Of a stretch of 64,000 bases of DNA, positions 462-21,126 are shown in pieces; within the stretch, counting starts at the first letter, position 1, and each line of letters opens with the position of its first letter. This DNA is from Candidatus Bathyarchaeia archaeon (lineage in GTDB: Archaea > Thermoproteota > Bathyarchaeia > Bathyarchaeales > Bathycorpusculaceae), in contig JAVZNE010000001.1 in NCBI GenBank assembly GCA_038882975.1, positions 192,001 to 256,000 on the forward strand. The letters are read 5' to 3'. The notes beneath the pieces are model-generated. The model saw only the letters and a list, made by a program, of their open reading frames with translations. It did no database searches and was not told the origin of the DNA. The position numbers were made by a program, and so were the translations under genes.

Positions 462-466
462 AAGAC

Positions 467-2760: not shown

Positions 2761-2797
2761 TTTGGTTTCTCCGGGTTGCAGAAACACTTATACAGGT

Positions 2798-4174: not shown

Positions 4175-4188
4175 ATCCCTACCTCGTT

Positions 4189-5274
4189 TTAAATAATGCA
4201 TTTTGATTCTGATACATCATGGAAAACTTCTTTGGCTGGGCAAATTGAAACTCCTTCAGCCAGTGAAACATTATCCCCTATAACCGCGTAATCCCCTATA
4301 ACACAGTTACTGCTAATTTTAACCCTTTTACCCACAACAACATTCTCACCAATTATGGCTCCATTTATTAAAGAATCATCAGAAATAGAGACGCTTGAAA
4401 AGATGACCGAGTTTTTTATGTGAGCGTTCCTTCCCACGCTAACGTTTTTCCCGAGAACCGCGTATGGTCCAATGGTTGAGCCTTCCCCAATTGTAGCGCT
4501 TAAATCACAAAATACTGGTTCCTTTATCTTCCCGTCACCCTTTATCACGTTCTCATGTCTCCCACGAAGGCTATCCAGCAGAATCTTGTTTATCTCCAGA
4601 TAATCTTCAGCCTTACCAATGTCAGTCCATAGACCATTGAACACGTAGCCAAAAAGCTTGCCTTCCTCCACAAGCTTTGGAAATACCTCACGCTCAAGAG
4701 AAACCTTTCTTCCAATCTGGATATATTTGAAAATTTCGTGGCTGAGAACGTATATTCCAGCGTTTATAAGATTTGATGGAAACATTCCAGGCGGAGGTTT
4801 CTCAATAAACCTTTCTATTTTGCCGTTATCGGCGAGTTCTGCAACCCCATATCGACTTGGATCTTTAACAGTGCATAAGGCTATTGTTGCAACAGCATCT
4901 CTTTCCTCATGTTTCCTAATTATTTCAGCATAGTTTATGCTGGTGAAGATGTCGCCATTTACAACCAGAAAATTGTCGCCTTTTAAGAGTTCTTCAGCAT
5001 GTTTTATTGCGCCGCCTGTTCCAAGAGGCTTTTTAGGAGGGTCATACGAGTATACAATTTTCACTTTGCCCTTCGAAAACTTGGAATTTTTTATGTGAAA
5101 GGCTGTTTGATGATTAACCGCCAATATCGCCTCTCTTATCCCACTTTTTGATAGGCTTTCAAGGGTCCATTCTAAAAGCGGCTTGTTAAGCACTGGGAAT
5201 AGAATTTTGGGTCTTGTACAGCTCAGGGGTCTAAGCCGGGTTGCAAATCCTCCCGCTAGAATTAATGCCTTCAA
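4189..5274 (-). CDS. sugar-phosphate nucleotidyltransferase (mannose-1-P guanylyltransferase-like) with beta-helix tail
   Basis: LAGGFATRLRPL, PLGTGGA, VNGD, FIEKP, hexapeptide repeats. Confidence 0.88.
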   Translation of the reverse strand: MKALILAGGFATRLRPLSCTRPKILFPVLNKPLLEWTLESLSKSGIREAILAVNHQTAFHIKNSKFSKGKVKIVYSYDPPKKPLGTGGAIKHAEELLKGDNFLVVNGDIFTSINYAEIIRKHEERDAVATIALCTVKDPSRYGVAELADNGKIERFIEKPPPGMFPSNLINAGIYVLSHEIFKYIQIGRKVSLEREVFPKLVEEGKLFGYVFNGLWTDIGKAEDYLEINKILLDSLRGRHENVIKGDGKIKEPVFCDLSATIGEGSTIGPYAVLGKNVSVGRNAHIKNSVIFSSVSISDDSLINGAIIGENVVVGKRVKISSNCVIGDYAVIGDNVSLAEGVSICPAKEVFHDVSESKCII

Positions 5275-5353
5275 TGGGGTTTCACCGTTTATGCTGCAAG
5301 CTTATATTCAAAATCCTTCGAATAAAACAGTTTCGTGAAGAGGAGGAAGCCTT

Positions 5354-6112
5354 ATGAAAGTTCTACTTCATGAGATGAGTTGGGTGGAGGCAAAGGAATA
5401 TTTTGGCAGAAATGATATAGCCATCGTTCCAGTTGGCTCCAATGAACAGCATGGTCCCCAAAACCCCCTCGGAACAGACCATTTTATTGCCAAGGCAATA
5501 GCCGAGGAAGCTGCCAAACGTGCAAAGGTTCTCTGTTTGCAAGTTATTCCTTTCGGCGTAAGCCACCACCATAGACAGTTTTGGGGCACAATTCATGTTT
5601 CACCTAAAACCCTAAAAGCCTACGTGAAGGATGTTTGCCTATCCCTAAACTATTATGGCGTAAAGAAAATTGTCATTGTTAATGGGCACGGCGGAAACCT
5701 AAACGCCCTAACCGAGCTAGCTAGAGAGTTAAGAGAAAAAGGGATTTTCGTCTCAGTTTTTCAATGGTGGCCCGCCGCTGGAAAGCTTTTTCCAGACATA
5801 TTTAAGCCGGAAGAGAGGGGACACGCTGGTGCTGAGGAAACTTCTGTGAATTTGGCTTTACACCCGCATCTAGTAAACATGGATAGGGCTTTGGACGAGG
5901 AGGTGCGCGGGCACATCGCAGAGGTTGAAGGCGTAACCCTTCCATTGGACACTGCGGATCGCACAAGTTCAGGAGTTTTCGGCAGGTCAACAACAGCTTC
6001 AGCGGATAAGGGTAAACAGGTTTTTGAAGCGGTGGTTAACGAACTTGTTAAACACATCGATTTGCTGAAAAAAGCGAAAGTTGAGGATTTGATGGCTAAA
6101 TCGAGGATTTAA
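5354..6112 (+). CDS. creatininase-family amidohydrolase
   Basis: GSNEQHG..LGTD, NGHGGN, HAGAEETS; SD GAGGAGG upstream. Confidence 0.88.
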   Translation: MKVLLHEMSWVEAKEYFGRNDIAIVPVGSNEQHGPQNPLGTDHFIAKAIAEEAAKRAKVLCLQVIPFGVSHHHRQFWGTIHVSPKTLKAYVKDVCLSLNYYGVKKIVIVNGHGGNLNALTELARELREKGIFVSVFQWWPAAGKLFPDIFKPEERGHAGAEETSVNLALHPHLVNMDRALDEEVRGHIAEVEGVTLPLDTADRTSSGVFGRSTTASADKGKQVFEAVVNELVKHIDLLKKAKVEDLMAKSRI

Positions 6113-6116
6113 AGTG

Positions 6117-7673
6117 TCATTCCCATTCTATAGTTGCAGGCGGCTTATGGGTAATGTCATACACCACCCTAACAACTTCCGGTATTTCGCTGGTTATCCT
6201 CGTGGAGACTTTTTCTAAAACCTTGTAGGGAATTCTTGCAAAACTCGCCGTCATAGCCTCGCGACTTTCCACAGCTCGGATGGCTACGACATAGCCATAA
6301 GCTCTAGTGTCGCCCTTAACACCAGTGGCTTTCGTGTTTGTCAAAACCGCAAAATACTGCCACAATCGCTCTTTTAAGCCACTTTTCTCGAATTCCTCCC
6401 TCACAATTCTGTCCGCCTTCCTAACAATCTCAACCTTCTCTTTAGTTATTTCACCTACAACTCGTACTGCAAGCCCAGGACCGGGAAAAGGCTGCCTAAA
6501 AACTATTTCTTTTGGCAACCCAATTATTTTGGAGACTCTGCGAACTTCGTCCTTGTATAAATCTCTCAAAGGCTCGACAATTTTCTTAAACTTGATTTTT
6601 GTTGGGAGCCCGGCAACGTTATGATGCGTCTTGATTTTGTCTGAAAACCTTCGGAAGCCGGATTCAATTCTATCTGGGTAAATAGTTCCTTGGATGAGGT
6701 ATTCTGCGCCAACTTTTTCCGCAACTTCTTCAAAAACTCTGATGAACTCTTCGCCTATAATCTTCCTTTTCATTTCTGGGTCGGTTACGCCTTTAAGCCT
6801 TTCAAAGAATCTTTCTTGCGCGTTTACAATAACAAGGTTTATTTTGAGTTTTTGGAAAGTGTTCTTAACAAAATCTGGCTCGTTTTCCCTCATGAATCCG
6901 TGGTTAACAAAAACTGCTGTTAGTTTCTCTCCTATTGCCTTGGCTGCTATGGCTGTGGCTACGCTGGAGTCTATGCCTCCACTTAGGGCTATTATAGCTT
7001 TGCCGTCACCAACTTCTTTCCTAACTTCCTCAACCATTTTATTTATAATGTCTTCCATCCTCCAGTTGGCAACACAACCACACACTTCAAAGATAAAATT
7101 GTGCAGCATTTTAGCTCCATTTACCGTGTGCACCACTTCTGGATGCCACTGTAAACCGTAAATTGGTCTGGTTTTATGCTTGAAGGCGGCAACTGGGCAA
7201 TTTTGAGTATGAGCTAAAACATCAAATTCTGGGGGAACTGAAAAGACTGTATCGCTGTGGCTCATCCAAACCCGCTCTTTCCTGTTTAAATCCTTTAGAA
7301 CGTCAACAGGCTTGCCTATTATTGCATAAGTTGAGCCGAACTCTTTCCGCTTGGCTGGGCCAACTTTCCCACCGAAAATTTGAGCTATAAGCTGATGCCC
7401 ATAGCATAAACCTAAAACAGGTAGTCCTAAATCAAAAATACGCTTGTCCGGCTTTGGCGCATCTGCATCAAAAACGCTTGCAGGACCGCCAGACAGAATT
7501 AACCCTTTAATGTTAAACTTTTCGCCTAGAAGCCGTATCTCCTCAATTTTTATGTCGTGGGGAACAATTTCCGAATATACGCCGTTCTCTCTAACCCGCC
7601 TCCCAATGAGGTGACAGTATTGCCCGCCGAAGTCCAATACCAATATGGTATCGTATTTCAAGTATATACACAC
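6117..7673 (-). CDS. guaA: GMP synthase (fused GATase + ATP-PPase)
   Basis: [48 protein letters not shown]; likely start TTG at 7661. Confidence 0.95.
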
Positions 7674-7716
7674 TCAAATGCTTTGAACATGGGGATAAAA
7701 TGCTATTAAAAGTTTG

Positions 7717-9120
7717 TTAGGCGTATATGTACTTTTGCAGCTCCCAAAGCGTAACTGCGCCTTTATCATCTTTGGGCATGTGAGGCTCGTATTCACGCCA
7801 CTCTTGCATTTTAAGCTCCAAATATTTCTCCATGTTTTCTTTACCCAAAGCCCTTATGCAAATGTCGTCGCTTTTCAGTTCTTCCGAGGCTTCTTTAAGT
7901 GAGCTTGGCAGTACCTTAATTCCAAGCTCCTTTCGCTTCGCCTCGCTTAAATGATAAACATTCACGTCAACGGGGTCACCTGGCTCTATCTTCCTTTTGA
8001 TACCGTCTAAACCAGCTTCGAAGATTACGGCATATGCTAAATAAGGGTTACAGAGCGGGTCTGGACATCGGAATTCTATTCTGGCTTCACTCTCCTTCCC
8101 TGGGAAGTATTCTGGCACTCGGATTAAGGCTGAACGGTTTTTCCTGCTCCAAGTAATGTAGACCGGAGCCTCATAGCCTGGCACAAGCCTCTTATAACTG
8201 TTGACCGTGGGCGCTACAACTGCGCATAAAGCCCTTGCGTGCTCAAGGATTCCACCTATGAAATAGCGGCACTTCTGTGACAAATGAGCATAGCCATCCT
8301 TGTCATAGAAGATATTTCTTCCAGTCTTCGCGTCGAAAAGTCCGAGATGGACATGCATGCCGCTCCCTGGTTTTCCAAACCATGGTTTTGGCATGAAAGT
8401 GGCTATCCATCCATATTTTCTGTCAGCAACAGCCTTAGCTGCAAACTTATAACGTACAATATTATCCGACGTTGTCACCGGATTGGAGTACTTGAAAGTT
8501 ATTTCATTTTGAGCCGCACCGACCTCATGGTGCTGCCTCTCAACCTCTATGCCCATTGTGAAGAGCGCATTGGTCAACTCCATTCTGAAGGCTTCAGTAA
8601 CATCCCTGCCCGGAGCTATGTCAAAATAACGCTGTTTGTCTATAAGGTGATTTTCAACAGGTTGGAAATCGCCATTAGCGGTTCTTTGCACAAGGTAAAA
8701 CTCCAACTCTGCGGCTGCCGTCGGCTCGTATCCCTCAGCCGCCAATCTTTCAAGGGTTTTTTGGCATATATATCGCGGGTCTCCTTCAAAGCGTCTGCCT
8801 TCCGGCGTGTATAAGTTGCAAATAAAGCTCACAACACTTTTGTCATAGAAATAGTATGGGCAAACCGTGAAAGTGGTTATGTCAGGTTTCATAAGCATGT
8901 CGCTTTCTTCTATGCCAACTCCGCCAATCAACGATGAACCATCAAAGCCGACACCCTCAACTATGGCGTTTTCCACCTCCTCAACGGGAATAGTCCTACC
9001 CTTTAAAAAACCAAGCAGATCTGTGAAATGCAAAAGAACATGGTCAGCGTTTTTCATAAGCCTAAAACACAATTCAACATTTTGGTTTTGAAACATCCGC
9101 CGTAGCGAATTTCGCATCAT
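7717..9120 (-). CDS. glnA: glutamine synthetase type I
   Basis: FDGSS, ELEF, HHEV, FMPKP..GSGMHVH, NSYKRLVPGYEAP, NRSALIRVP, RIEFR; start uncertain. Confidence 0.88.
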   Translation of the reverse strand: MMRNSLRRMFQNQNVELCFRLMKNADHVLLHFTDLLGFLKGRTIPVEEVENAIVEGVGFDGSSLIGGVGIEESDMLMKPDITTFTVCPYYFYDKSVVSFICNLYTPEGRRFEGDPRYICQKTLERLAAEGYEPTAAAELEFYLVQRTANGDFQPVENHLIDKQRYFDIAPGRDVTEAFRMELTNALFTMGIEVERQHHEVGAAQNEITFKYSNPVTTSDNIVRYKFAAKAVADRKYGWIATFMPKPWFGKPGSGMHVHLGLFDAKTGRNIFYDKDGYAHLSQKCRYFIGGILEHARALCAVVAPTVNSYKRLVPGYEAPVYITWSRKNRSALIRVPEYFPGKESEARIEFRCPDPLCNPYLAYAVIFEAGLDGIKRKIEPGDPVDVNVYHLSEAKRKELGIKVLPSSLKEASEELKSDDICIRALGKENMEKYLELKMQEWREYEPHMPKDDKGAVTLWELQKYIYA

Positions 9121-9260
9121 GTTAGCTCCCTGGATAATTTTACAGTTAGATAAGCTTTAATAATACATATAAAAGGTTTTTCAAAGAAAATGATGACAAA
9201 TGTTAAATATAAAATAAAGTAGTCTTACATGTGTAACATGAATGAAGGAGCGTATATATA

Positions 9261-9770
9261 ATGAACGGTGCAAATGTTCGATGGTCAGCCCCCAAGGAAG
9301 GTAGCGAAAAGCGGGTCAGAAAAGGGGAAGAATTAAACGAGGTTGACGTGAAAATTTTGAGGGCTTTAACTTTGGATGCGAGGCTTTCCTCAAGGCAGCT
9401 GGCTAAGCAGTGTGGCGTATCCACAAGCACAGCCCTATCAAGAGTAAAGAAACTGGAAGAAGCTGGTATAATAAAGGGGTACGCAGCCCTACTGGACCAT
9501 GAGAAACTTGGCTACGCCCTAACCGTCGTGGTCGAAATAACAGTTTCAAAAGGAAGACTTTTAGAAGTGGAAAGCGAAATTGCAAAACTTCCCAACGTCT
9601 GCTGCGTCTACGACGTAACAGGACTGATAGACGCCATAGTCATAGCCAAATTCAAAAACAGAGAAGAACTAAGCAAATTTGCAAAACGCTTGTTAGCAAT
9701 GCCCTACGTAGAAAGAACAAACACCCACGTAGTGCTAACAACAATAAAAGAAGATTTCAGAATAATCTAA
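9261..9770 (+). CDS. Lrp/AsnC transcription regulator
   Basis: HTH (DVKILRAL..ARLSSRQLAK) plus RAM domain (YDVTGLID); divergent from glnA. Confidence 0.9.
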   Translation: MNGANVRWSAPKEGSEKRVRKGEELNEVDVKILRALTLDARLSSRQLAKQCGVSTSTALSRVKKLEEAGIIKGYAALLDHEKLGYALTVVVEITVSKGRLLEVESEIAKLPNVCCVYDVTGLIDAIVIAKFKNREELSKFAKRLLAMPYVERTNTHVVLTTIKEDFRII

Positions 9771-9837
9771 ACCCTTAAGAAACATTGAAGGGAAGGTTTA
9801 ATTTCACCTAGAAAAATAAGAAATAAACTGAAGACAT

Positions 9838-9952
9838 GCGGGGGTTGCCAAGCCTGGCCAAAGGCGCAGCCCTGAGGAGAAACCCTTCCAAAAGTTTCGC
9901 GGAACGGCTGTCCCGTAGGGGTTCGTGGGTTCAAATCCCACCCCCCGCACCA
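9838..9952 (+). tRNA. tRNA-Leu(GAG) with 27-nt intron at 37/38 (9878-9904), CCA encoded
   Basis: Acceptor GCGGGGG/CCCCCGC, anticodon stem CAGCC/GGCTG, loop CT-GAG-G, long variable arm, T-arm GTGGG-TTCAAAT-CCCAC, relaxed bulge-helix-bulge. Confidence 0.93.
9940..9950 (+). repeat. att-like core copy 1 (ACCCCCCGCAC, tRNA-Leu 3' end)
   Basis: Identical 11-mer at 11767 and 13067. Confidence 0.8.
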
Positions 9953-9970
9953 TCGCCACAACGTCGAATT

Positions 9971-9996
9971 CGCTCAAACTTCGCTCTTTTTGAGCG
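9971..9996 (+). other. hairpin downstream of tRNA-Leu (possible terminator or att-associated structure)
   Basis: CGCTCAAA-N10-TTTGAGCG, perfect 8-bp stem. Confidence 0.4.
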
Positions 9997-10052
9997 TAAA
10001 ACAGCAGAAAATTGACTTTAATTTTTTGGGTCTCTTTTGATTTTGCTTGAGA

Positions 10053-10069
10053 GTTTATAACTGTCAAGT
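10053..10069 (+). repeat. subterminal inverted repeat, left
   Basis: GTTTATAACTGTCAAGT matches the reverse complement of 13035-13051 at 16/17. Confidence 0.7.
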
Positions 10070-10246
10070 CCAAAAATAAATTGTTTCAATAGGATGGGAT
10101 GGGAATGGAAAAATAAAGAATTCTTCCGGCCGTTCATATAACGAATCTTTATCTCTATTAGACTCAACAAATTGACAAACACACTATATATAAATTGGTT
10201 AAACTCTTATTAGAATTTAGAGTAAAAATTTCAATCGGCTCAATAT

Positions 10247-10704
10247 ATGTCTATGTCAAGAGATAAGAAACTGGTAACACCTCCAAGGTTAAGTATAGCA
10301 GACCTTCTAGAAATACAACACACCGATATTAATTTTGACAATTTTTCTGTTGAAGAAATCGAAGAATTAATTGGTGACGAAATTGTTCAACGCTATCTGA
10401 AAATGGTTAAGGAAGCACGATTAACACGTTCTCCTGAGCTTGAAAATTATCAAAAGGAACTGAAAGAACAGGTGAAAAAGAAATCCTACTTTATTTTAGA
10501 AAGAAAAGTTAGCGAAGAATTAAGATGGCGAAGAGCGTCTGGATTTGTCTCAATAGCGAGTTGGTTATAGGAGTTCTGTGCATTTTATCTAACAACTTGT
10601 TAGGAGCCTCGCTGCTATTTATAATAGGAGGATTTTTTATGGCGATTGCGGTCGGCTACAAAAAGATTGAGATGGGAATAAAAAAACTAGGAATAAAGAA
10701 GTAA
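10247..10704 (+). pseudogene. frameshifted hypothetical protein with two C-terminal TM helices
   Basis: ORF stops at 10570, but the -1 frame from 10561 reads LVIGVLCILSNNLLGASLLFIIGGFFMAIAVGYKK...KK* to 10704. Confidence 0.6.
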
Positions 10705-11112
10705 CCTGACGAGGGCAAATATGAAAGAGGCTTAAAATTAACTCGTTTCTAAAATTTCATCTTAAAAAAATCATCTTAAATCGGATTAAAAAGGAGATAT
10801 CAAATAGATATCATTTTTGCTTGTTTCACCCGTAGAAATTTTCTGGTTCAAACTTTTCTTTCAACTCATCTCTAATTTATTTAATATTGTCTGAAAATTG
10901 TAACCATGAAAGTGAAAATGCTATCACATTAACACCTGCTAGCATAATATGAATGTAAGAAATGTGGAGTAAAGAAATTCAAAAGCACTCTTATTGTACC
11001 TTCCTGGTTAGCTGACACTGGAAGACCCGTCTGTTATAGTTTTAAACCTTACAGACCTAAAGAACATAAAGATGAGAAAAAGAAACATTGATGCAACAGT
11101 AAACTTAACATA

Positions 11113-11388
11113 TTATGAGTGATATTCAATAAAGTACAATAAAATAGCGAAGATTACTATTTGAAGTATAAGTTCAATCATGACTGACATGGGGTCTATT
11201 GCCCATCCAGCTAATAGGTTAAATGGAAAGGGTAGAGCCTCAATAATCGTCATAATCGTAAGTTCTGATATTAACTCTACAATGTTTCTGCTCAACAAAA
11301 TTCCTATTATCCAAAGTGCTGTAACAATAAACCCAGCAATAAACCACAAGCCTATATACTTAGCTATTTCACTCACTATTTCGCTCAT
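11113..11388 (-). CDS. small hydrophobic membrane protein
   Basis: 91 aa with 2-3 hydrophobic segments. Confidence 0.6.
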   Translation of the reverse strand: MSEIVSEIAKYIGLWFIAGFIVTALWIIGILLSRNIVELISELTIMTIIEALPFPFNLLAGWAIDPMSVMIELILQIVIFAILLYFIEYHS

Positions 11389-11766
11389 TAATAAACTGGT
11401 GTCATCAATAGAGAGATAAAAAGTTTATTTTACGCAATGGCGCTTTCGCAGTGTTCGAGCATTTTGAATGTTTGAATTTCTAAAATGGTTGTTTGAACTT
11501 GGTAAACCATCTATACGCTTTGCTTGCAACTTTCTTTTTCCATTTCATATTCAGCTTCAGTTTTATACACACCTAACCAACACCAAAGAGAATGCTCCTA
11601 AACTTCAAAGATAGAACCGTATGATTACTCCATTCCAGCTAAAAAGATTCCTAGTACTATCAACTTGGACCTTTAGGCTTACCTTTCAGAACATCCCTTG
11701 CTGTATGCCACCAACCAGACATAGGAACATCATTTACCAATGAAAAGTTCAATTCCCTGCTTAACT

Positions 11767-11777
11767 ACCCCCCGCAC
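11767..11777 (+). repeat. att-like core copy 2
   Basis: ACCCCCCGCAC, a GC-rich word within AT-rich DNA. Confidence 0.8.
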
Positions 11778-11972
11778 TGAATTTCACTTCTAGGTTTAAA
11801 CTGTCACATCGTTTGTCGGAATAAAATAAAACTATAGTGTGAGCAAAACTCGGATTACGTAAATAAATATGGTTAAAGCTGTAAATGTCAACTCATTCGT
11901 GTATCTGTTTTTTATGTGATATTGTAGATATATAGAAAACTATAAATGTAGCTACTTGTAATAATATGAAAC

Positions 11973-12155
11973 ATGGGCAAACTAAATGTTAAAATAAAAA
12001 ATGATGTCGATGTCAAATTCAGAGAAGAAGTATTTAGAAGAAAAGGCATGAAAAAAGGAAACTTAACAGAGGCGTTAGAAGAGGCAATACTGTTATGGAT
12101 TAACACAGATACTCTAAAGAAAAAAGAGAAAAATATTAAAGGCGAAACAAAATGA
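11973..12155 (+). CDS. ribbon-helix-helix DNA-binding protein
   Basis: Alternating beta strand KLNVKI followed by two helices (..GNLTEALEEAILLW); TATA-like TATAAA at 11941. Confidence 0.7.
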   Translation: MGKLNVKIKNDVDVKFREEVFRRKGMKKGNLTEALEEAILLWINTDTLKKKEKNIKGETK

Positions 12156-12262
12156 TGTTTTCCAAGGTAGAAATAAATATTAAGTGTATAGCAATAATAT
12201 ATATTATAGAATAAGAAAAGTTAGATAAGCTACTAGAAGATTATGATTTAGAGGATGAGAAA

Positions 12263-12475
12263 ATGAAAAAAAGTAAGACGAGTGGGTTCGAATACATAAT
12301 GTCTTTAGGTGACAAACTTGGAGAATACGTTGAAAAATGGATAGTAGTATTAGACAACAAAATAGTAGCAAGTGGTGAAGACTTAAAAGAGGTTTATAAA
12401 GAAGCAAAGGAGAAACATCCTCAAGAGACTCTTTTCGTAATGAAGGTTCCTGCAGACAAAGTCATGGTGCTGTGA
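12263..12475 (+). CDS. DUF5678-like small protein
   Basis: EYVEKWIVVLDNKIVASGEDLKEVYKEAKEKHP resembles the DUF5678 pattern; GAGG upstream. Confidence 0.7.
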   Translation: MKKSKTSGFEYIMSLGDKLGEYVEKWIVVLDNKIVASGEDLKEVYKEAKEKHPQETLFVMKVPADKVMVL

Positions 12476-12481
12476 CATTGT

Positions 12482-12934
12482 TTGCCTTCTAAAAAGAGTG
12501 TTACTTGCAAATATTTATTTTATAGGTATACCATGCGAAATGGTACAGTTAGGACACTGTTACTTCCTTTAGTTCATGTCCGAATAGAATCTCCCGAAGA
12601 ACATATCGAAACAGATGCATTGGTGGATTCAGGTGCTACTAGGACACTTATTCCAAAAGAGATAGCAGAAATTTTGCCATCTTTGAAATATGAAGAACAA
12701 CGTGCTGAAGTCACGGGTGCTGGAGGTGTATTCCTTGCTAGAGTAACAAGATTGAAAAAGCTTACACTGATAAAGAATATCACTCCATTTGCACATTTTG
12801 TGGAAATTGAAGTGTTAGTTCCAGACCATGAGGGTATTTTACCCTATGTGATTCTTGGAAGAGACTACGTCTTCCGCCGATTTGACATTACATTTCATGA
12901 AAAGAGGCGAAAATTAACTTTTACAGAAATCTAA
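12482..12934 (+). CDS. retropepsin-like (clan AA) aspartic protease
   Basis: ALVDSGAT catalytic motif, flap VTGAGG, ILGRD. Confidence 0.82.
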   Translation: MPSKKSVTCKYLFYRYTMRNGTVRTLLLPLVHVRIESPEEHIETDALVDSGATRTLIPKEIAEILPSLKYEEQRAEVTGAGGVFLARVTRLKKLTLIKNITPFAHFVEIEVLVPDHEGILPYVILGRDYVFRRFDITFHEKRRKLTFTEI

Positions 12935-13034
12935 ACGGCGAGAAGTTCAAATGTAACGCCAATCGCATTAATGCATACAACCAACTAGGCAATCTTTTTA
13001 TGGAAAATGGAGAAATTGACTTGTAGATAATGTC

Positions 13035-13063
13035 ACTTGACAGTTTTAAACGACAGTATAAAC
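13035..13063 (-). repeat. subterminal inverted repeat, right (two tandem motif copies)
   Basis: Reverse complement reads GTTTATACTGTC + GTTTAAAACTGTCAAGT. Confidence 0.7.
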
Positions 13064-13066
13064 CTA

Positions 13067-13077
13067 ACCCCCCGCAC
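13067..13077 (+). repeat. att-like core copy 3
   Basis: ACCCCCCGCAC at the right island boundary. Confidence 0.8.
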
Positions 13078-13161
13078 TTTTGCATTTATCTCCTATTACA
13101 CACAGAGAATATGGTAAGTCTTATCTACTTGAGATTTTGCACGCTGCAAAACTAAAATGGT

Positions 13162-13237
13162 TGGTAGCCCGGGGGAGATTCGAACTCCCGTCGGCGGGTC
13201 CAAAGCCCGCTATGCTTGTCCACTACACCACCGGGCT
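13162..13237 (-). tRNA. tRNA-Gln(TTG), CCA encoded
   Basis: AGCCCGG/CCGGGCT acceptor (A1-U72), anticodon arm GCGGG-CTTTGGA-CCCGC, GTTCGAATC T-loop. Confidence 0.95.
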
Positions 13238-13262
13238 TCATACATACATCATGTGATTAACT

Positions 13263-14387
13263 TTAACTCTTTGATATGTGTGTTTTGATTAAATGTTTCC
13301 TTTCTCGCCTTATTTTCCATATGTCTTTTCTAGCCTTTTTGATGGTTTCCGCCGCCTCCGCCTTACTTACATTAGCCGTGTCATTTAAGCTTAGAAGCTT
13401 TACAATGTTTTGACAGTGTTTTGGGTTACCTTTTTCAAGTTTTTCTATCGAGTGCATTAGTCTTGTGTAGTCTATTTTCTGCCTTTCAACTATGGCTTTT
13501 AGCCAAGCATAGTTTTCAACAATGTTTAGGGATATACTGGATAAGTAGTGCACTGTTTCAGCAAACTTTCTAGAGTTTATCATTGAGTTTGCTCTTAAAA
13601 TTGTGCCTTGCATGAACGCGGTGTTAAAGTAATAGTTTAAGCTTGTTCTAACTTTGAAATGCACGTTTTTCAACGTTTGAGATTTCCGTTTAACGATGAA
13701 GCTCATTTCGTCCCAAACAGCTTTGAAGAGTTTTAGCTTTTCTTCAGCTGCTGTTATATTCACATCATCTAGTTTAGCCATTACTATATAATCGTTAAAA
13801 ATTTCTGGCATGCCAAGCTTTTCCGCTGCAATTTCCACTTTTTCTAGGAATCGGCTGTTTGAAAAAGGTTCGAGAGTTATTTCCAACAATACACGCAAAA
13901 TATTTTCCATGGCAACAACGGCGAAGAGATGGGCGCTTAGATGGTCGCCTTTGGTGTGGGCTGAGGTTGCACGGCTTAGGTATATGTCTGACTCTATTAT
14001 GTGGGTTTCTATCCTCATTCCAATCCTTTCATGCGAGCCATAAAACTTCGCCATTGAAAGCTTTGTATTTGTCAAAGTCCAGTCCCTATCGTATAGGATT
14101 TGGACTTCGTAGAGTTTTTGGTCAAATTTTGGATGTATTGGACCTTGAATCAAATGTTTTGGAACAAAATTAAAGTCTAGAAATAGGTCGCCAACAGAGA
14201 CTCTCTCCACATACTCGTCTTCGAGAGGGTTATTGCTGAGGACTAGCAAGTCGACATCACTTGAAGGTACAGCGTCGCTGCGGCTCCAGCTTCCAAATAA
14301 GCCTATCCCAGAAATGGTTTCGTTGGCAGCCATCTCTTTTACGATTTTCTCCAGCGTTTTTCGCACTTTCTCTGGGAGCTTTATCAT
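13263..14387 (-). CDS. Pol-beta-type nucleotidyltransferase domain protein with helical C-terminal region
   Basis: LFGSWSR..SDVDLLV motif; start trimmed to MIKLPEK. Confidence 0.75.
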   Translation of the reverse strand: MIKLPEKVRKTLEKIVKEMAANETISGIGLFGSWSRSDAVPSSDVDLLVLSNNPLEDEYVERVSVGDLFLDFNFVPKHLIQGPIHPKFDQKLYEVQILYDRDWTLTNTKLSMAKFYGSHERIGMRIETHIIESDIYLSRATSAHTKGDHLSAHLFAVVAMENILRVLLEITLEPFSNSRFLEKVEIAAEKLGMPEIFNDYIVMAKLDDVNITAAEEKLKLFKAVWDEMSFIVKRKSQTLKNVHFKVRTSLNYYFNTAFMQGTILRANSMINSRKFAETVHYLSSISLNIVENYAWLKAIVERQKIDYTRLMHSIEKLEKGNPKHCQNIVKLLSLNDTANVSKAEAAETIKKARKDIWKIRRERKHLIKTHISKS

Positions 14388-14463
14388 TTTGGCACAACTC
14401 TTTTGGTAGATTAGTAGCACTAATCATTATTCAAGATTTGTGAAGGGGATATTTTAGTTTAAA

Positions 14464-14482
14464 CCGTAAAATTTATATATTA
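14464..14482 (+). promoter_or_regulatory. BRE/TATA promoter of tfb
   Basis: CCGTAAAA followed by TTTATATA. Confidence 0.55.
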
Positions 14483-14586
14483 AAACATTTCATCTGGATA
14501 GAACACGCGGGGCCGGATGGCGTCTTCTACTCCTATATTGGGGAAATGAAAAGGGACGGTTCTACGCAAAATCGAAGTGTGGGAAA

Positions 14587-15525
14587 ATGAGCGGGAAAGA
14601 AAGCGGAACCCGTCAACGCTTGGTTGACAAGTGCCCGGAATGTGGTAGTGTAAATCTTATCCACGACTATGACACTGGCGAAACCGTTTGCGGAGAATGT
14701 GGACTTGTACTTCACGAGCAGATGATGGACAAGGGACCAGAGTGGCGTGCCTTCACACAGGAGGAGAAAGCCTCAAGAAGTCGCGTAGGAGTGCCAACGT
14801 CCTACTCCGTCCACGATAAAGGATTGTCAACGGCCATAAGCCAAGTTGACCGAGACGCCTTCGGAAGAAAACTTCCACTTTCGACACGCTTGCAAATGTG
14901 GCGCCTAAGAAAATGGCAGATACGCTCAAGGGTGCACTCCTCAATAGACCGAAACTTGGCACAGGCAATGGCTGAGCTTGACCGCCTCTCAGACAAGGTG
15001 TATATACCGCCACCGATTAAGGAGAAGGCAGCCGTCATATACCGCAAAGCCCTAGACAAAGGCTTAGTACGGGGAAGATCAATTGCAGCCATAGCCGCTG
15101 CTGCCCTTTACGCTGCTTGCCGTGGAAGCGGGACCCCGAGAACATTGAGGGAGATAGCGGAAGCCAGCTTAGTGGACAAGAAGGATGTTGCCCGCTGTTA
15201 TAGGCTCTTGCTCCGAGAGCTTGACGTGCAAATGCCCATAGCAGACCCATTAACATACGTTTCAAAAATTGCTGAAAAAACCGGGATTTCGGGTAAAACA
15301 CAAGGACTGGCAATACAAATCTTACGTGAAGCAAAAATGAAACGTGCCGCAGCTGGAAAAGACCCTATGGGTTTGGCTGCCGCAGCACTATACATTGCAT
15401 GCTTGCAAAATAATGAAAAGAAAACCCAAAAGGACATTGCTGAAGCTGCGGGGGTCACGGAGGTTACGGTTCGAAATCGCTACAAAACACTGAAGAGGCA
15501 ATTAAACTTAGAACTGCCAGACTAG
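14587..15525 (+). CDS. tfb: transcription initiation factor IIB
   Basis: CPECG..CGECG zinc ribbon, GPEWRAF B-reader, two cyclin repeats, VTEVTVRNRYK. Confidence 0.97.
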   Translation: MSGKESGTRQRLVDKCPECGSVNLIHDYDTGETVCGECGLVLHEQMMDKGPEWRAFTQEEKASRSRVGVPTSYSVHDKGLSTAISQVDRDAFGRKLPLSTRLQMWRLRKWQIRSRVHSSIDRNLAQAMAELDRLSDKVYIPPPIKEKAAVIYRKALDKGLVRGRSIAAIAAAALYAACRGSGTPRTLREIAEASLVDKKDVARCYRLLLRELDVQMPIADPLTYVSKIAEKTGISGKTQGLAIQILREAKMKRAAAGKDPMGLAAAALYIACLQNNEKKTQKDIAEAAGVTEVTVRNRYKTLKRQLNLELPD

Positions 15526-15531
15526 CCGTTT

Positions 15532-15741
15532 CTAACTTTCATTTTCTTCCTTTTCGATTTCCATAACTATGGGGCCAACATACCCGCAGTCTTCACAAAC
15601 ATATTTTTTAGGCGTTAACCAGTAATCAAGGCTGCTTGACAGATGGATTTTGGGACTTCCGCATCTTGGACAGTAAATTTTCGATGGACCACGATGTTTC
15701 AGAGTCTTCAATACTTCACGCATGTTTTGTAGGATTTCCAT
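15532..15741 (-). CDS. small zinc-ribbon protein
   Basis: CPRCGS...CEDCGY. Confidence 0.7.
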   Translation of the reverse strand: MEILQNMREVLKTLKHRGPSKIYCPRCGSPKIHLSSSLDYWLTPKKYVCEDCGYVGPIVMEIEKEENES

Positions 15742-15766
15742 GGGCTTACACCTTTTTAGGGCGTGG

Positions 15767-16075
15767 CTATTGAACCTCTATGTTTTCCTCCGGATATCCA
15801 AGCCTTATTAGGTATTGGCGGACTTTTTCGCGGTGGTCTCCTTGAAGGATTATTTGTCCGTTTTTGGCTGTTCCTCCACATGCACAGAAGCTTTTCAGTT
15901 TTTGGGCTAGGCCTCCAAGGTCTGTGTCTTTGTCGTTTATGCCTTCAACTATTGTTGTTGGTCTGCCGAACTTTCTTGTTTCAAATCTTATACGAATTCT
16001 TTGCTGCTCTTTCCCTATCTCGCCACAGACACACAAATCTTTGGGAAGCCCACATATTGGACAGATATCAGCCAT
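15767..16075 (-). CDS. translation initiation factor aIF-1 (SUI1)
   Basis: ICPICGLPKDLCVC, LKSFCACGGT, LQGDHR; real start ATG at 16075. Confidence 0.93.
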   Translation of the reverse strand: MADICPICGLPKDLCVCGEIGKEQQRIRIRFETRKFGRPTTIVEGINDKDTDLGGLAQKLKSFCACGGTAKNGQIILQGDHREKVRQYLIRLGYPEENIEVQ

Positions 16076-16199
16076 GACGCTCAACATTTCAATGGCAACG
16101 CCCGTATATAAAATTTTCAAATCCCCAATCACTAAATTGGCAAGCATAAGCAGATTGAACCGGAAAAGCTTTAATGTTTTCATATAACCTTTTTGACTT

Positions 16200-17348
16200 A
16201 TGCGAGCGGTTGTTATAGGCTGCGGAAGAATGGGTTCGGTGGCGGCTGAAGAATTAGCGAAAAGGGCGAGCAAAGTTGAAGTTTTTGTTGCTGACAAAGA
16301 CGTAAACAAAGCCAAAGAAACTGCAAAAAGTATTGGAAAAAACAATGTTAAGTGGCTTCAATTAGACGCCTCAAACAAGAAAGAGCTGATAAACGCCTTG
16401 AAAGATTTCGATTTAGCTCTGGGTTTTTTGCCGCCGAGGTTTGGCTTCAGCCTCATTGAAGCATGCATAAAAGCGGGAAGTAATCTTGTTGACGTCTCGT
16501 ATATGCTTGAAAACCCCCTAATACTGCATGAGAAGGCTGTTGAGGCCGGTGTCACAATTGTTCCAAGCTGTGGATTAGCGCCAGGCATTAGCAACATCCT
16601 CGTTGGTCACGCAGTTGTAGAACTTAACAAAACCCATAAAATTCACATAATGGTTGGCGGACTACCAGAAATGCCAATACCGCCTTTGGGCTACGTTGTT
16701 ACATGGTCTCCTGAAAGCCTCATCGACGAATACACAAGCAAAGCCCACATAGTTAGGGATGGCAAAATAGTCGAAGTTGAAGCTTTAGATGGCTTGGAAA
16801 CGATGGAGTTTCCAAAGATTGGCAAGCTGGAGGCCTTTTACACGGACGGACTTAGAACTTTACTATACACTATTGGAGAGGTTGATGAAATGTGGGAAAA
16901 AACGCTTCGCTACCCCGGACACGCGGAAAAGATAAAGCTGCTAAGGGATTTGGGCTTCTTCAGCGACAAAGAGGTTTCCGTTGAAGGATGCCGCATACAA
17001 CCTAGAAAACTTACAGCAAAACTTTTCGAGAGAGCTCTCGTCAAACCTAACGTGAAGGACGTTGTCGTTTTAAAAGTTGAGGTTTACGGTTTAAAAGACG
17101 GAAGAAAAACGCGTTACACGTACAATTTGGTTGATTATTATGATGAAGGGGGCAGAGTTACCGCCATGGCTAGGACTACTGCATACACCGCCTCGATTGT
17201 GGCAACATTGATTTTGAAAGAAGCCATACCCTTAAAAGGTGTTGTGCCGCCGGAGATACTGGGCATGGAGGGAAAGATTTACAAACAAATCATAGCGGAA
17301 CTTGAAAATAGAGGAATTAAAATCGCTGAAGAAGTGTGTTTGGAATAG
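16200..17348 (+). CDS. saccharopine dehydrogenase / lysine 6-dehydrogenase family
   Basis: GCGRMG, CGLAPG, KTLRYPGH, TAMARTT. Confidence 0.85.
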   Translation: MRAVVIGCGRMGSVAAEELAKRASKVEVFVADKDVNKAKETAKSIGKNNVKWLQLDASNKKELINALKDFDLALGFLPPRFGFSLIEACIKAGSNLVDVSYMLENPLILHEKAVEAGVTIVPSCGLAPGISNILVGHAVVELNKTHKIHIMVGGLPEMPIPPLGYVVTWSPESLIDEYTSKAHIVRDGKIVEVEALDGLETMEFPKIGKLEAFYTDGLRTLLYTIGEVDEMWEKTLRYPGHAEKIKLLRDLGFFSDKEVSVEGCRIQPRKLTAKLFERALVKPNVKDVVVLKVEVYGLKDGRKTRYTYNLVDYYDEGGRVTAMARTTAYTASIVATLILKEAIPLKGVVPPEILGMEGKIYKQIIAELENRGIKIAEEVCLE

Positions 17349-17355
17349 GCTTGTC

Positions 17356-18243
17356 TTATGATACTATGCCCATTCTGTGGAGTTCTTCCCGGAGGCTCTC
17401 TCTAACTTGTTTTAGGCTTTGCCTCTTAACCACATACTCGTCTCCGCTTATTTTGCCAGCCCTAAAATCTTCATCTAGCTGGGCTAATTGACGGTCTATT
17501 TCTGCTATGCGCGCCCTTATCTGGTCTATGTAGGATACGGCTCTTTCCTCTGCCATGACTTCTGACGGTGTCAGCGCCATCTTTATTACACCGTCCTCGA
17601 TTCGCAGTATTCTGTCCGCGGCTCTTGCAACGCTCGGGTCGTGAGTAACCATAATTATGGTTTTGCCTAATTCCTTATTGACTTTAGATAAATAATTGAC
17701 AACGATTTTTGCATTTGCGGTGTCCAACTCGCCTGTTGGCTCATCGGCTAATATTAGTGGCGGGTCATTCGCAAGAGCGGCGGCTATGGCTACTCGTTGC
17801 TGTTCTCCACCGCTTAATTCGTCTGGTTTGTGGTGGGCTCTTTCTGTCAGCCCAACTATTTCGAGAAGCTCCTTAACGCGTTGGGTTCTTTTGCTTCTCG
17901 GGACACCTAAAGCTACCATGGGAAGCTCAATGTTTTCCGCCGCCGTTAAAGTCGGTATCAGGTTTAGTGTTTGGAATATGTGGCCCACCGTTTTGCGCCT
18001 ATATTCAACTAGTTGGGATGGATGCAGTGCTGTAACCACTGTGTCGCCAACTTGAACGTAGCCTCCCGTTGCTTGGTCCAACCCGCCTATAATGTTGAGC
18101 AGTGTTGTTTTTCCGCTTCCACTTGGCCCAATTATGGAGACCATTTCGCCCTCCTTAACTTCCATGCTTAACCCTCTTAGGGCTTGGACCTCCACGTTTC
18201 CAAGCCTATAAATTTTGATTAGGTCTTTGGCTATCACCTTCAT
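17356..18243 (-). CDS. ABC ATPase (LolD/MacB type) with C-terminal helical extension
   Basis: GPSGSGKT, LSGGEQQR, ILADEPTG, VTHD. Confidence 0.92.
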   Translation of the reverse strand: MKVIAKDLIKIYRLGNVEVQALRGLSMEVKEGEMVSIIGPSGSGKTTLLNIIGGLDQATGGYVQVGDTVVTALHPSQLVEYRRKTVGHIFQTLNLIPTLTAAENIELPMVALGVPRSKRTQRVKELLEIVGLTERAHHKPDELSGGEQQRVAIAAALANDPPLILADEPTGELDTANAKIVVNYLSKVNKELGKTIIMVTHDPSVARAADRILRIEDGVIKMALTPSEVMAEERAVSYIDQIRARIAEIDRQLAQLDEDFRAGKISGDEYVVKRQSLKQVRESLREELHRMGIVS

Positions 18244-18248
18244 TCCTC

Positions 18249-21017
18249 TCATATTCTCACTATCCTCTCAACTTTTGAAATGTATCTTTTCGTAAGTAAG
18301 AGTGTGGGTATTATTGTTGAGGCGAATATTAGGGTTAGGCATGAAGCCAGAAGTGTTATGGCGTCTAGCGGGAAAACCATTCTGTATCTCACAAGCGTGT
18401 AGGCCAGCGCGGAGTTAGAAGCTGCAACATTGCCATTCACAACAATCAGACCCACCACCGCGCCTAAGACAACCGCGAAGGTGACGACGGCCATATTCTC
18501 TGTGAGCAGCATAATCAAAAGTTGTTTAAAGGACAAACCACGCGACCACATTATAGAAGCCTCTTTCTTCCGTTCTTGAAGGCTTACCAACGTTGCTAAA
18601 CCCACAGCCACAGAAGCCGCCAATATTGCAAAGACAACGCCTACGCTTTGAATGTTCAGCGGCCCAACCAGTAATAGATTGCTTTGAAGTTCTTCCAGTT
18701 CTTCAGCAACTGAACGCACAGAATTAACACCGTTAATTTTTCGAATTTCAGAAGCCACCGCCGCCCCATCGGCATTCGCCTTCAACTTCACCAGAATAGT
18801 AGCAGGTGATTGCCAACCCAAATTCAGCGATTTAAAAAGCCCCATCGGAATGTACGATTGGAAATGCCACTGATATTCTTGAGGGATTTCGTGCCCAAAA
18901 AATCCGATAACCTCCAATTCCAATCTTGAATTCCCAATAGTAACCATCACAGTGTCTCCAACCTTCTTATTTAGGCTTGCCGCAGCATTCCGCTCAAGAA
19001 TAATCGTTTGATTTTTCATTTTCATAGACTGGAAGGCTTTTTCTGCATTGTTGCCGCTGAACCAGTCTTCTTCATAATAGGCTGTTGAAGGCCAAGTTTC
19101 TGGGTCAACAGCGATAATTTGCCTCGAATTGCCATCTGAAAATACTCCAGCGATGGAATATTGAATGGTTAGAGACGCTATCTCGTTCATATTTTTTATG
19201 GTCTTTTGAACCTCCGTTATGTTGGCTGTTGGGCCCAATGAGACGCTTATGTCTGCGCCCACCTCGGCTTTGATTCTGCGGATTGTGTAGTCTTGGCTGC
19301 TGGCAACTCCCCCTATAGTTTGGAAGCTGTAGCCCACAATCAATGCCACTAGGAAGGCTACTGAAGCGGCTCTAGCAGGGTTTCTCTGAACGCTTTTTGT
19401 GGCGAAAGTTCCCAAATCGCCCAGAAACTTCGCTGCTCGAGCCACCAGCTCTTGAAACTTTAGAGAGCCCCGAATGAAAATCTTTGTGAAACCCCAGAAA
19501 AAGAGTAGCGGTCCAATGTATGTAAGGGCGGAATCTATGGCAATCCATATGGCCAAAAGTATTAAGAGGAATATGTTAGTGAAAGGTGGAGGTCGTCCCG
19601 TGAAAACTTGGACCAAGTTTATGCCGAAAAGGAACATGACAATCTTGTAGAGCCCAAGGGCGAAGGCTACCCATGGCCAACGCTGCTTGTATGGCTTAAC
19701 CTCCTCTATGTAAGTGTATTCCCTAAGGGCCTCTACTGTTGGAAGTTTTGCGGCCCTCCGCGAGGGGCTGAAGGTGGAGAAAAGGGTTATGGCTAAGCCA
19801 AAAATTACGGTTAAAATTATGATTTCCGTACTTAAAACTGGTGATGCCATTTCCAGTCCCCCACTTGCCGCAGCGAAGAGGGGAGCAACTGCAAAACCCA
19901 GTCCCACCCCTGCCAGCCCGCCTAGTATTCCGATTATTATCGACTCCGTTAGGAATAGCCTAAACAATTGAGCGTTCGAGAAACCTTTCGTTAAAAGCAA
20001 GCCAATTTCCCGTCTTCGCAGGTTGTAGGAGACATCTGAAACAGTTGATCCAACATACCAAGCCACAAAAAAGACCGGAAGCGCCACAATGATAAAAGCG
20101 AACCGCATGGTTATGCTTGTCGTATAGAAGGTCATAAGGGCCATTCCAAGGTTGTCGGTAACATACATGCCGCTGTATTTGGCAACTTTTTCACCAATTT
20201 GAAACTTAACCTTTTCAAAAGCCTCCATCGAACTGGGAATGTCCCAAGGGTTGATAAACCGCTCTCTGTCTACATAGACTAGAATCTGTGTTGAAAATGG
20301 AAGACTGTAGTATGGTATATCTTTTGGAACATCGTCCAGAAGCCTTGCGAAGGTTTCCTCCCAGCTTATAATGAGGAGCAAATCACCATGAAAAATGCCG
20401 GTTCTGTAATCATCCCGCAGTATCATTATAGGTGGACTCCATTCACCAGTGGCGATTGAATAAGCCTTGCCATCAAGCTCTACAAAGCCCATAACCATCA
20501 GGGACAAAACAGCAAAAGTCTCTTCCCGCTGGCTTCGATATGAATAATATGTGAGATTTAAGGTGATTATGTCGCCCAACTTCATTTTATTAGCTGCTTT
20601 TGAACCAACCCAAACATAAGTTTCATTCACCCCAAGTGCGCCTTCTCCGTTTACTATGCTAAGCCCCTCATAAACTATTGAGGTGGATGATATGGCAGCA
20701 ACCATTACCACAGTGTAATTTTCGTCAAATTTTATAGTTGAAGTGAGTCTTGAGATAACCTCAGCACCCCTTACCCCTTCAACTTGCCTAATGTCGTTAG
20801 CCGCTTTTTTCCAATCGCTGGAGCTGATGGTTGAGCTGCTGCCAACACTTATATCAACGGGGATTCGTTCTAGCTGCTGCAAGAGGGCAGCCCTTGCTGT
20901 TGTATCGGCGCCGATATTTATGCCAGCGAAAAAGGACGAGGCAAGAATGACTCCTAACAGCAGTGCCGCGAAAAGCCCGAAAGAACGGAAAATTCGCTTT
21001 ACAGCGTACGAAATCAT
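18249..21017 (-). CDS. FtsX/MacB-like ABC permease (duplicated)
   Basis: Two FtsX modules (RRREIGLL..G.S; ERKKEASIM.SRG.S) with large extracellular loops. Confidence 0.88.
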   Translation of the reverse strand: MISYAVKRIFRSFGLFAALLLGVILASSFFAGINIGADTTARAALLQQLERIPVDISVGSSSTISSSDWKKAANDIRQVEGVRGAEVISRLTSTIKFDENYTVVMVAAISSTSIVYEGLSIVNGEGALGVNETYVWVGSKAANKMKLGDIITLNLTYYSYRSQREETFAVLSLMVMGFVELDGKAYSIATGEWSPPIMILRDDYRTGIFHGDLLLIISWEETFARLLDDVPKDIPYYSLPFSTQILVYVDRERFINPWDIPSSMEAFEKVKFQIGEKVAKYSGMYVTDNLGMALMTFYTTSITMRFAFIIVALPVFFVAWYVGSTVSDVSYNLRRREIGLLLTKGFSNAQLFRLFLTESIIIGILGGLAGVGLGFAVAPLFAAASGGLEMASPVLSTEIIILTVIFGLAITLFSTFSPSRRAAKLPTVEALREYTYIEEVKPYKQRWPWVAFALGLYKIVMFLFGINLVQVFTGRPPPFTNIFLLILLAIWIAIDSALTYIGPLLFFWGFTKIFIRGSLKFQELVARAAKFLGDLGTFATKSVQRNPARAASVAFLVALIVGYSFQTIGGVASSQDYTIRRIKAEVGADISVSLGPTANITEVQKTIKNMNEIASLTIQYSIAGVFSDGNSRQIIAVDPETWPSTAYYEEDWFSGNNAEKAFQSMKMKNQTIILERNAAASLNKKVGDTVMVTIGNSRLELEVIGFFGHEIPQEYQWHFQSYIPMGLFKSLNLGWQSPATILVKLKANADGAAVASEIRKINGVNSVRSVAEELEELQSNLLLVGPLNIQSVGVVFAILAASVAVGLATLVSLQERKKEASIMWSRGLSFKQLLIMLLTENMAVVTFAVVLGAVVGLIVVNGNVAASNSALAYTLVRYRMVFPLDAITLLASCLTLIFASTIIPTLLLTKRYISKVERIVRI

Positions 21018-21126
21018 CCAACAGCCTCGAGTTTTCGTGGTAAAAATATCTCAACCTTGTTTATTTAAGACTATACATTAGAACATGCTTTATATCCCCA
21101 TTCGCTCCCTTTTCTATTGAAAAGCC

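Follow-up and report, generated by a model that had tools for sequence, protein, structure and literature searches.

Inverted end repeats of integrase-less cassettes behind a bathyarchaeal tRNA-Leu gene, putative sites of a trans-acting site-specific recombinase

The window analysed here, a 64,000-nucleotide (nt) stretch of the genome of a Candidatus Bathyarchaeia archaeon (contig JAVZNE010000001.1, positions 192,001 to 256,000), carries an island behind a tRNA-Leu gene in which copies of the motif GTTTAWAACTGTCA are found. These copies are probably the inverted end repeats of two small integrase-less cassettes, designated X and Y, and putative sites of a trans-acting site-specific recombinase. 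Both cassettes are bounded by short copies of the tRNA-Leu 3' end, termed the core. On sequence comparison, core-bounded cassettes with matched end repeats form a Bathyarchaeia-wide family, with hundreds of them stacked behind tRNA-Leu genes. A preliminary description of this DNA had proposed that the motifs define the ends of modules, in the manner of arm-type integrase sites or of the terminal repeats of a miniature element, and the comparisons reported below support it as far as the module ends are concerned: the insertion at the tRNA-Leu core is precise, the same end architecture bounds many unrelated cassettes elsewhere in the Bathyarchaeia, the left and right words co-vary per cassette, and near-identical cassettes occur in different contexts with their identity ending at the cores.

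Insertion behind tRNA-Leu and the motif copies

Alignment of the window by blastn with another genome of the same genus (G005) yielded two matching segments, 7-9950 at 98.4% identity and 13067-17774 at 92.4%. These alignments overlapped only by the 11-nt core, and the 3127 base pairs (bp) that are extra in the window, 9951-13077, are therefore an insertion. The empty site was also found in G031, and in both genomes it consisted of tRNA-Leu, a single core, the same spacer and tRNA-Gln. The island has a guanine-cytosine (GC) fraction of 0.32-0.35, versus 0.39-0.48 in its surroundings, is flanked by direct repeats identical to the tRNA 3' end (starting at 9940, 11767 and 13067) and is made up of two tandem cassettes with six small open reading frames (ORFs). 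Contigs of run X1 spanned 9925-13064 without any difference; X1 is possibly the source sample, so this support is not independent.

The number of core copies is in itself unremarkable, as three copies of the 10-nt core CCCCCCGCAC are present and 36 of 100 shuffles reached three at up to one mismatch. Its significance derives from the tRNA end and the empty site, not from copy count. The insertion-bearing tRNA-Leu is followed by CCA (..GCACCA), whereas the empty sites read ..GCACTTTT; the CCA is present only in the insertion-bearing copy, so the cassette supplies an encoded CCA-like end. The gene contains an intron and was missed by ARAGORN in its default mode, but was recovered by Rfam, and its GAG anticodon is our own reading of the Rfam alignment.

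Direct reading of the sequence confirmed the positions given in the preliminary description for all four motif copies and for the three copies of the tRNA-Leu 3' end. Copy A, GTTTATAACTGTCAAGT at 10053-10069 (plus strand), forms the left inverted repeat of cassette X and is matched in inverted orientation at 16 of 17 positions by ACTTGACAGTTTTAAAC at 13035-13051 (94% complementary over 17 nt in the repeat search), which stops 15 nt short of the core starting at 13067. Copy B, GTTTAAACTGTCA at 11794-11806, lies 16 nt past the core copy ending at 11777, and a partial copy, GACAGTATAAAC at 13052-13063, can be prolonged to 13066, giving a 15-nt inverted match to 11791-11805 at 93%. The copies at 10053 and 13035 had been regarded as a near-symmetric pair. 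Both are indeed end repeats, but they belong to the adjacent cassettes X and Y, and the true partner of the right-end copies (13035 and 13052) is the copy at 11794, within cassette Y. The 12-nt palindrome TGTCACTTGACA at 13031-13042 was found to lack conservation, in that the bases preceding TTGACAG vary among 42 related right ends.

A scan of the whole genome for the motif, as had been proposed at the outset, demonstrated that its distribution is not random and that exact copies are found solely in the island. The 13-mer with W occurs exactly at two places in the 1,423,221-bp genome, both within the island; at up to one error there are five places, three of them inside the island, and at up to two errors 103 places, these having been counted without individual inspection. 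Within this genome the motif is specific to the island. It is hardly credible that the similarity of the four copies is due to chance in AT-rich DNA. The island is AT-rich and short two-copy repeats are common, with 62 inverted pairs returned by the repeat search, but the motif pattern (at up to two mismatches) matched six times in the window against a shuffle mean of 1.19, six being reached in 0 of 100 shuffles, no other part of the genome has the motif, and the same sequences stand at the same core distances in dozens of other genomes.

End architecture and end classes in the Bathyarchaeia

The 43-nt stretch comprising both right-end copies and the core recurs twice, with 98% identity, in genome G021, which belongs to another genus. 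The right-end junction, searched as AAACCTA-N-core with up to one mismatch, was present in 61 of 401 sampled genomes of the order, representing 44 of 117 genera, and in none of the nine other genomes of the window's own genus; the reversed control pattern occurred at one place. With a longer exact right-end pattern, 34 matches were retrieved among 185,579 species genomes (one genome per species), 32 of which were labelled Bathyarchaeota, Bathyarchaeia or Bathyarchaeales, one Nitrososphaerota and one Hadarchaeota. No exact match to the right-end junction was detected in viral contigs. Viral matches to the 16- and 17-nt outer repeats (13 and 4, respectively) were without the rest of the end or the core, and were taken as chance.

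The canonical right end runs from a class word and TTTAAAC through a shortened second copy of that word to AAACCTA and the core. Its two repeats are arranged in tandem and are oppositely oriented to the left one; the outer ends 15 nt short of the core and the inner abuts it (0 nt). The canonical left end consists of the core, a spacer and then GTTTAAA with the complementary class word, the spacer measuring 16 or 17 nt in 26 of 29 cassettes and 15-17 nt in 27 of the 29. The ends fall into at least two putative specificity classes, TGTCA and CTCGG dominating. For the TGTCA class (word pair TGTCA/TGACAG, as in the window) the consensus is TTGACAGTTTTAAAC-GacAGTAT-AAACCTAA on the right (n = 42) and GTTTAAAACTGTCAA on the left (n = 26), and for the CTCGG class (CTCGG/CCGAGA) it is CCGAGAATTTAAAC-CGAtgTtT-AAACCTAA on the right (n = 68) and GTTTAAATTCTCGG on the left (n = 31). 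Rarer words (GCGTGAA, CGACGG, AACAAGG and AACAATG) precede TTTAAAC in loci L040-L045, L038, L063 and L032.

A second type of left end has a conserved leader of about 88-100 nt between the core and the repeat, of which window 9951-10069 is an example. The 11 long left ends that were aligned, from loci of other genomes and the window, follow either tRNA-Leu or a canonical right end, and in four genomes (G347, G403, G337 and G185) long left ends are paired with TGACAG-class right ends. Words resembling (T/A)TT.AAACTGTCAA stand at the same place in nine of the 11, the two without them being L019 and L010. The right end of cassette X (about 11740-11766) is, by our reading, a degenerate form of the canonical right end. 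The leader (9951-10050 in the window; also L002, L003, L047, L048, L050, L067, L068 and L069) contains the hairpin-capable pair CGCTCAAA...TTTGAGCG, and a search of it against Rfam gave zero matches. Another recurrent right end in the same arrays reads ccggtaaagt.gggtggggg.ccca and then the core (L061 18880, L069 8050, L072 4053 and L060 15441), and probably belongs to a separate element family sharing the core.

Conserved words at the borders of gene cassettes could also be transcription signals, with a TATA-like promoter on the left, a terminator or operator on the right and no role in recombination. TTTAAAA and TTTATAA are TATA-like words with respect to the archaeal consensus, the first plus-strand ORF lies about 180-195 nt after the left copy in both window cassettes, and the sequence past the left repeat is partly conserved in some loci. 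A transcriptional role on its own is nonetheless very unlikely: the copies at the right end are directed into the 3' terminus of the final gene, neither their inverted orientation nor the matching of the two ends would be explained by a promoter, both strands carry cargo genes, the motif is missing from the genome outside the island, and the word beside TTTAAAC co-varies between cassette ends, which is not required of a general promoter.

Mobility of the cassettes and the proposed recombination

There were 29 core-to-core units with both ends in view, of which 27 were classifiable and two had an unclassifiable left end. The end class was identical at both ends in 27 of the 27 classified cassettes (13 TGTCA and 14 CTCGG), whereas at the junctions between neighbouring cassettes the classes agreed in 41 of 59 instances and differed in 18 of 59 (Fisher p = 5e-4 versus within-cassette); the patterns by which the loci were retrieved are neutral on class matching, many of the loci are related and a few of the cassettes are near-identical.

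The same cassette was also found in different arrays. A 1839-bp cassette is shared by loci L131 and L176 at 99.4% identity, and a 1344-bp cassette by L165 and L176 at 99.7%. For both of these shared cassettes, which originate from metagenome contigs, the flanking neighbours differ on both sides and the identity halts at the cores. One of the shared cassettes lies directly behind tRNA-Leu(TAG) in L176, and behind another cassette in L165. Arrays were present behind the GAG, CAG and TAG isoacceptors of tRNA-Leu, and core sequences differ within a single array (L059: CCCCCCGCAC, CGCCCCGCAC and TCCCCCGCAC), which fits an element carrying its own copy of the core better than a fresh target duplication.

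Cassette cargo was surveyed in 57 of 170 ORFs, the larger ones picked by eye, from 16 core-to-core intervals. The products included an amino-acid permease, arsenic genes of the ArsR, ACR3-type (SBF-family), ArsP and LMWP types, a CitMHS/ArsB transporter, a P-type ATPase, MscL, a radical SAM protein, cysteine synthase with serine acetyltransferase, TauE, FmdE, flavodoxin, TrmB and an AbiV-like HEPN protein. Cassettes ranged from 0.6 to 5 kilobases (kb) in size, and gene orientation within them was mixed.

The repeats could alternatively be the terminal inverted repeats (TIRs) of non-autonomous transposons, either miniature inverted-repeat transposable elements (MITEs) or mini-casposons, inserted at the tRNA-Leu end by a target-specific transposase, in which case the cores would be target-site duplications (TSDs). 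Inverted repeats with short direct repeats, a recombinase-free interior and tandem arrays are all compatible with such elements, and the asymmetry of the ends (a pair of sites at the right end, a single site at the left) resembles that of transposon ends. In the available text on the casposons of Methanosarcina mazei, these elements are described as using tRNA-Leu-related targets, as occurring in tandem and as including mini-elements movable in trans (PMC10359463). We consider a transposon unlikely, however, since the repeats are subterminal, with the left one separated from the core by a variable 15-17 nt, and since the cores differ within one array. Neither Cas1 (PF01867) nor a serine recombinase (resolvase domain) was found in the window genome (G000, 94.7% complete). 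The TSD and TIR given for casposons in that same text differ from the sequences described here (PMC10359463), and the direct repeat is 10-11 nt long, rather than a 14-15 bp target duplication abutted by TIRs. Finally, the 7 nt left of the core and the inner repeat together resemble the tRNA T-arm (9/17), as is expected of an attP that shares ancestry with attB.

The natural junction L061:12555-12645, folded as single-stranded DNA (ssDNA), gave a 21-bp stem made up of two runs (5 + 16) at -14.7 kcal/mol (z = -4.3), equalled by 0 of 200 shuffles; the fold was used for the symmetry of the site alone. A long hairpin of this kind is also what would be expected if the arrays were integron-like, with palindromic junctions folding as ssDNA in the manner of attC and acted upon by a specialised integrase. 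Arrays of cassettes 0.6-5 kb long, devoid of an integrase and varied in their adaptive cargo, are in keeping with this, and integrons have been reported in archaeal metagenome-assembled genomes (10.1101/2022.02.06.479319, as far as its available text extends). Such an origin is nevertheless quite improbable, because the identity between copies of a cassette stops at the central, tRNA-derived core of the palindrome rather than at an outer box, the matched ends belong to the core-to-core unit, the orientation of genes within cassettes is mixed, and an integrase gene adjoining the tRNA-Leu platform was found neither in the window nor in the 26 loci searched.

The reading that we favour is that of a site-specific recombinase acting in trans, for which we infer protein binding at the repeats, a circular intermediate and the likely class of the enzyme. 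In an excised circle, the right end and the left end would be joined through a single core, in the order outer repeat, inner repeat, core, spacer and inverted repeat. The joined site would measure about 90 bp and have twofold symmetry about the core, from which the outer repeats would be roughly equidistant. A recombinase encoded elsewhere would bind the repeats and pair the joined site with either a tRNA-Leu end or a core already in the array, and strand exchange inside the core would then result in the gain or loss of one cassette per event. This recombinase would most likely be a tyrosine integrase, possibly assisted by an accessory protein. The repeats may be arm-type sites of such an enzyme, extended core sites or sites of another recombinase. 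The likeness between the inner right-end copy and the T-arm at the same position (9 of 17 bases, by our count) is expected if the inner repeat is the element-side counterpart of the tRNA site read by the enzyme. In a wider and more tentative sense, the Bathyarchaeia may have an integron-like mode of gene capture of their own, characterised by docking at tRNA-Leu 3' ends, cassettes of 0.6-5 kb, class-specific sites of about 90 bp and an unlinked, perhaps unconventional, recombinase.

Five paralogous integrases are encoded in the genome, four of which adjoin a tRNA gene (His, Asn, Leu and Ser), whilst the fifth is about 2 kb from tRNA-Met. An intact tyrosine integrase of 430 amino acids (aa) adjoins tRNA-Leu(TAG) and is convergent with it. 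The element to which it belongs (C3:86497-97982 of the same genome) measures 11.4 kb and has the same core on its flanks, within a 23-nt copy of that tRNA end, and therefore an enzyme acting on the core exists in the cell. Among the genomes and metagenome loci examined, none of the elements found to have an integrase carried canonical repeats at both ends. In L165 (3409-4035, oriented), an integrase gene 67% identical to a genome paralogue directly follows the last core of the array, in convergent orientation. A split integrase of the SSV type was dropped from consideration, the cassettes of 0.7-1.7 kb being without an integrase domain.

Several results weigh against a trans-acting recombinase at these repeats. 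The ends of the 11.4-kb tRNA-Leu(TAG) element are without the motif, hence it is no obvious helper. PF00589 had zero matches in the 64-kb window, all matches in the genome lying elsewhere, and no recombinase domain was detected in the six island ORFs. One integrase was present among the 57 scanned cargo ORFs, leaving 15 of the 16 intervals recombinase-free, and tblastn searches with eight integrases returned one whole gene (in L072) and a few short fragments from the 26 genome loci, and one match from 59 metagenome loci. The in-array integrase of L072 was rejected as the cognate enzyme: in 60 cassette-bearing genomes nothing exceeded 43% identity to it, and none of its homologues there was within about 20 kb of an array, i.e. 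there was no linkage. Neither a circular form nor a clean excision joint was seen in the run contigs, in which only weak joints (sides of 18-29 nt) occurred. The joints 9950 to 11780 (three extra letters; runs X1 and X2; sides 26 and 18), 9950 to 13037 and 11806 to 13044 (X1; side 27) had sides that were too short, and were not used. With respect to geometry, the repeats are 0-16 nt from the core and thus nearer than classical arm sites, whilst the approximately 42 bp between the outer repeats is far above the 6-8 bp of an overlap region. Lastly, the counts given above are not independent, since the genomes and metagenome contigs are related to one another and were collected through pattern searches.

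The features of the island are collected in Table 1. The ORFs of cassette X matched zero Pfam families, and an NCBIfam search with 10 unexplained cassette ORFs gave no meaningful match. The three ORFs of cassette Y, encoding ribbon-helix-helix-like, DUF5678 and aspartyl protease products (11973-12934), all run in one direction, and parts of cassette Y matched G023 and G040 at 68-74%. Contigs at 88-97% likeness over 11855-13065 were present in runs X2, X4 and X6, which had nearly zero cover across 10108-11700. A second difference from G005, of 3.27 kb (window 17775-21045), has a normal GC fraction (0.46), and its flanks are joined directly in G005; it covers most of an ABC ATPase gene (17356-18252, minus strand) and an FtsX-type permease of 922 aa (18249-21017, minus strand).

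Table 1. Features of the tRNA-Leu island and its borders (window positions)
Feature	Position	Strand	Basis or remark
tRNA-Leu (anticodon read GAG), intron of about 30 nt in anticodon loop	9838..9950	+	Docking gene; Rfam tRNA 40.1 bits, E 4.1e-06
Core copy 1, ACCCCCCGCAC, tRNA 3' end, left insertion junction	9940..9950	+	Repeat family; blastn breakpoints versus G005 overlap by these 11 nt
Cassette X, no integrase	9951..11766	+	Long left end, degenerate right end
Long left end of cassette X: leader following the core, ending in motif copy A	9951..10069	+	Aligned with 10 other loci
Cassette X ORF, 107 aa	10247-10570	+	No known family
Cassette X ORF, 59 aa	10525-10704	+	No known family
Cassette X ORF, 91 aa	11113-11388	-	No known family
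Core copy 2, X/Y cassette junction	11767..11777	+	Direct-repeat family
Cassette Y, no integrase, canonical ends	11778..13066	+	Pfam scan of ORFs
Motif copy B, GTTTAAACTGTCA, left inverted repeat of cassette Y	11794..11806	+	16 nt after core; matches consensus of 26 left ends
Cassette Y ORF, weak ribbon-helix-helix	11973-12155		RHH_6 E 5e-4, under curated cut-off
Cassette Y ORF, DUF5678	12263-12475		E 9.7e-15
Cassette Y ORF, retropepsin-like aspartyl protease	12533-12934		Asp_protease_2 E 5.2e-09
Outer right-end copy A' (minus strand GTTTAAAACTGTCAAGT)	13035..13051	-	Consensus of 42 right ends of class
Inner right-end copy B' (plus strand GACAGTATAAACCTA)	13052..13066	-	Tandem direct repeat of A', abuts core
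Core copy 3, right junction; native chromosome from 13078	13067..13077	+	Direct-repeat family, empty-site alignment
tRNA-Gln(TTG), native neighbour of tRNA-Leu at empty site	13162..13237	-	tRNA searches

Significance and comparison with known systems

The Bathyarchaeia are abundant uncultured archaea of sediments and hot springs in which gene exchange is poorly known, and roughly one sampled genome of the order in seven contains the cassettes, the cargo of which includes arsenic-resistance, cysteine-synthesis and defence-like genes. If the repeats are recombinase sites, they would offer a simple sequence signature by which accessory-gene flow through the lineage could be charted, two defined DNA substrates with which the enzyme could be sought and possibly a site-specific integration tool for archaea without a genetic system. 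Searches of open-access literature returned no description of the cassette family, subscription journals being outside this coverage. Integrase-less integrated elements and tandem integration are noted in a review of archaeal tyrosine recombinases, in the available text of which the terms 'arm-type' and 'arm sites' have 0 occurrences (PMC8371274), and the available part of a paper on Bathyarchaeia viruses mentions integrases but not such sites (PMC10848311).

Several known systems share part of this organisation. The casposons and mini-casposons of M. mazei are likewise archaeal, and in the text available they are associated with a tRNA-Leu-related target, inverted and direct repeats, tandem arrangement and movement in trans (PMC10359463). 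They differ in the sequences of their TSD and TIR and in having terminal repeats, and Cas1 is not among the genes found in the window genome. Cis-mobilisable elements (CIMEs) and the accretion arrays of streptococci are flanked by att sites, lack recombination and transfer genes and accumulate in tandem at the end of a single tRNA gene or other gene; their mobilisation is presumed to occur in trans, as is proposed here. The att sites of CIMEs, however, are also those of an identified parent element that carries an integrase, whereas a parent with the present end repeats was not found among the genomes and metagenome loci searched, and the cassettes described here are archaeal and make up a large family whose matched ends fall into two or more classes.

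Arm-type sites of the lambda kind are also short repeats placed on both sides of a crossover core, in opposite orientation and unequal numbers. The repeats of the bathyarchaeal cassettes lie 0-16 nt from the core rather than tens of nt, and there is no element-encoded integrase. Xer-dependent modules, namely integrative mobile elements exploiting Xer (IMEX) and pdif modules, are recombinase-less, are bounded by recombination sites and depend on an enzyme encoded elsewhere, but their sites are dif-like, in contrast to the tRNA end with its own flanking repeats seen here. Integron cassettes likewise form arrays of small recombinase-less units with diverse adaptive cargo, each with an imperfect palindromic site, whilst the cassettes of the Bathyarchaeia are distinguished from them by docking at the tRNA-Leu 3' end, a tRNA-derived core at every junction, mixed gene orientation and no adjacent integrase.

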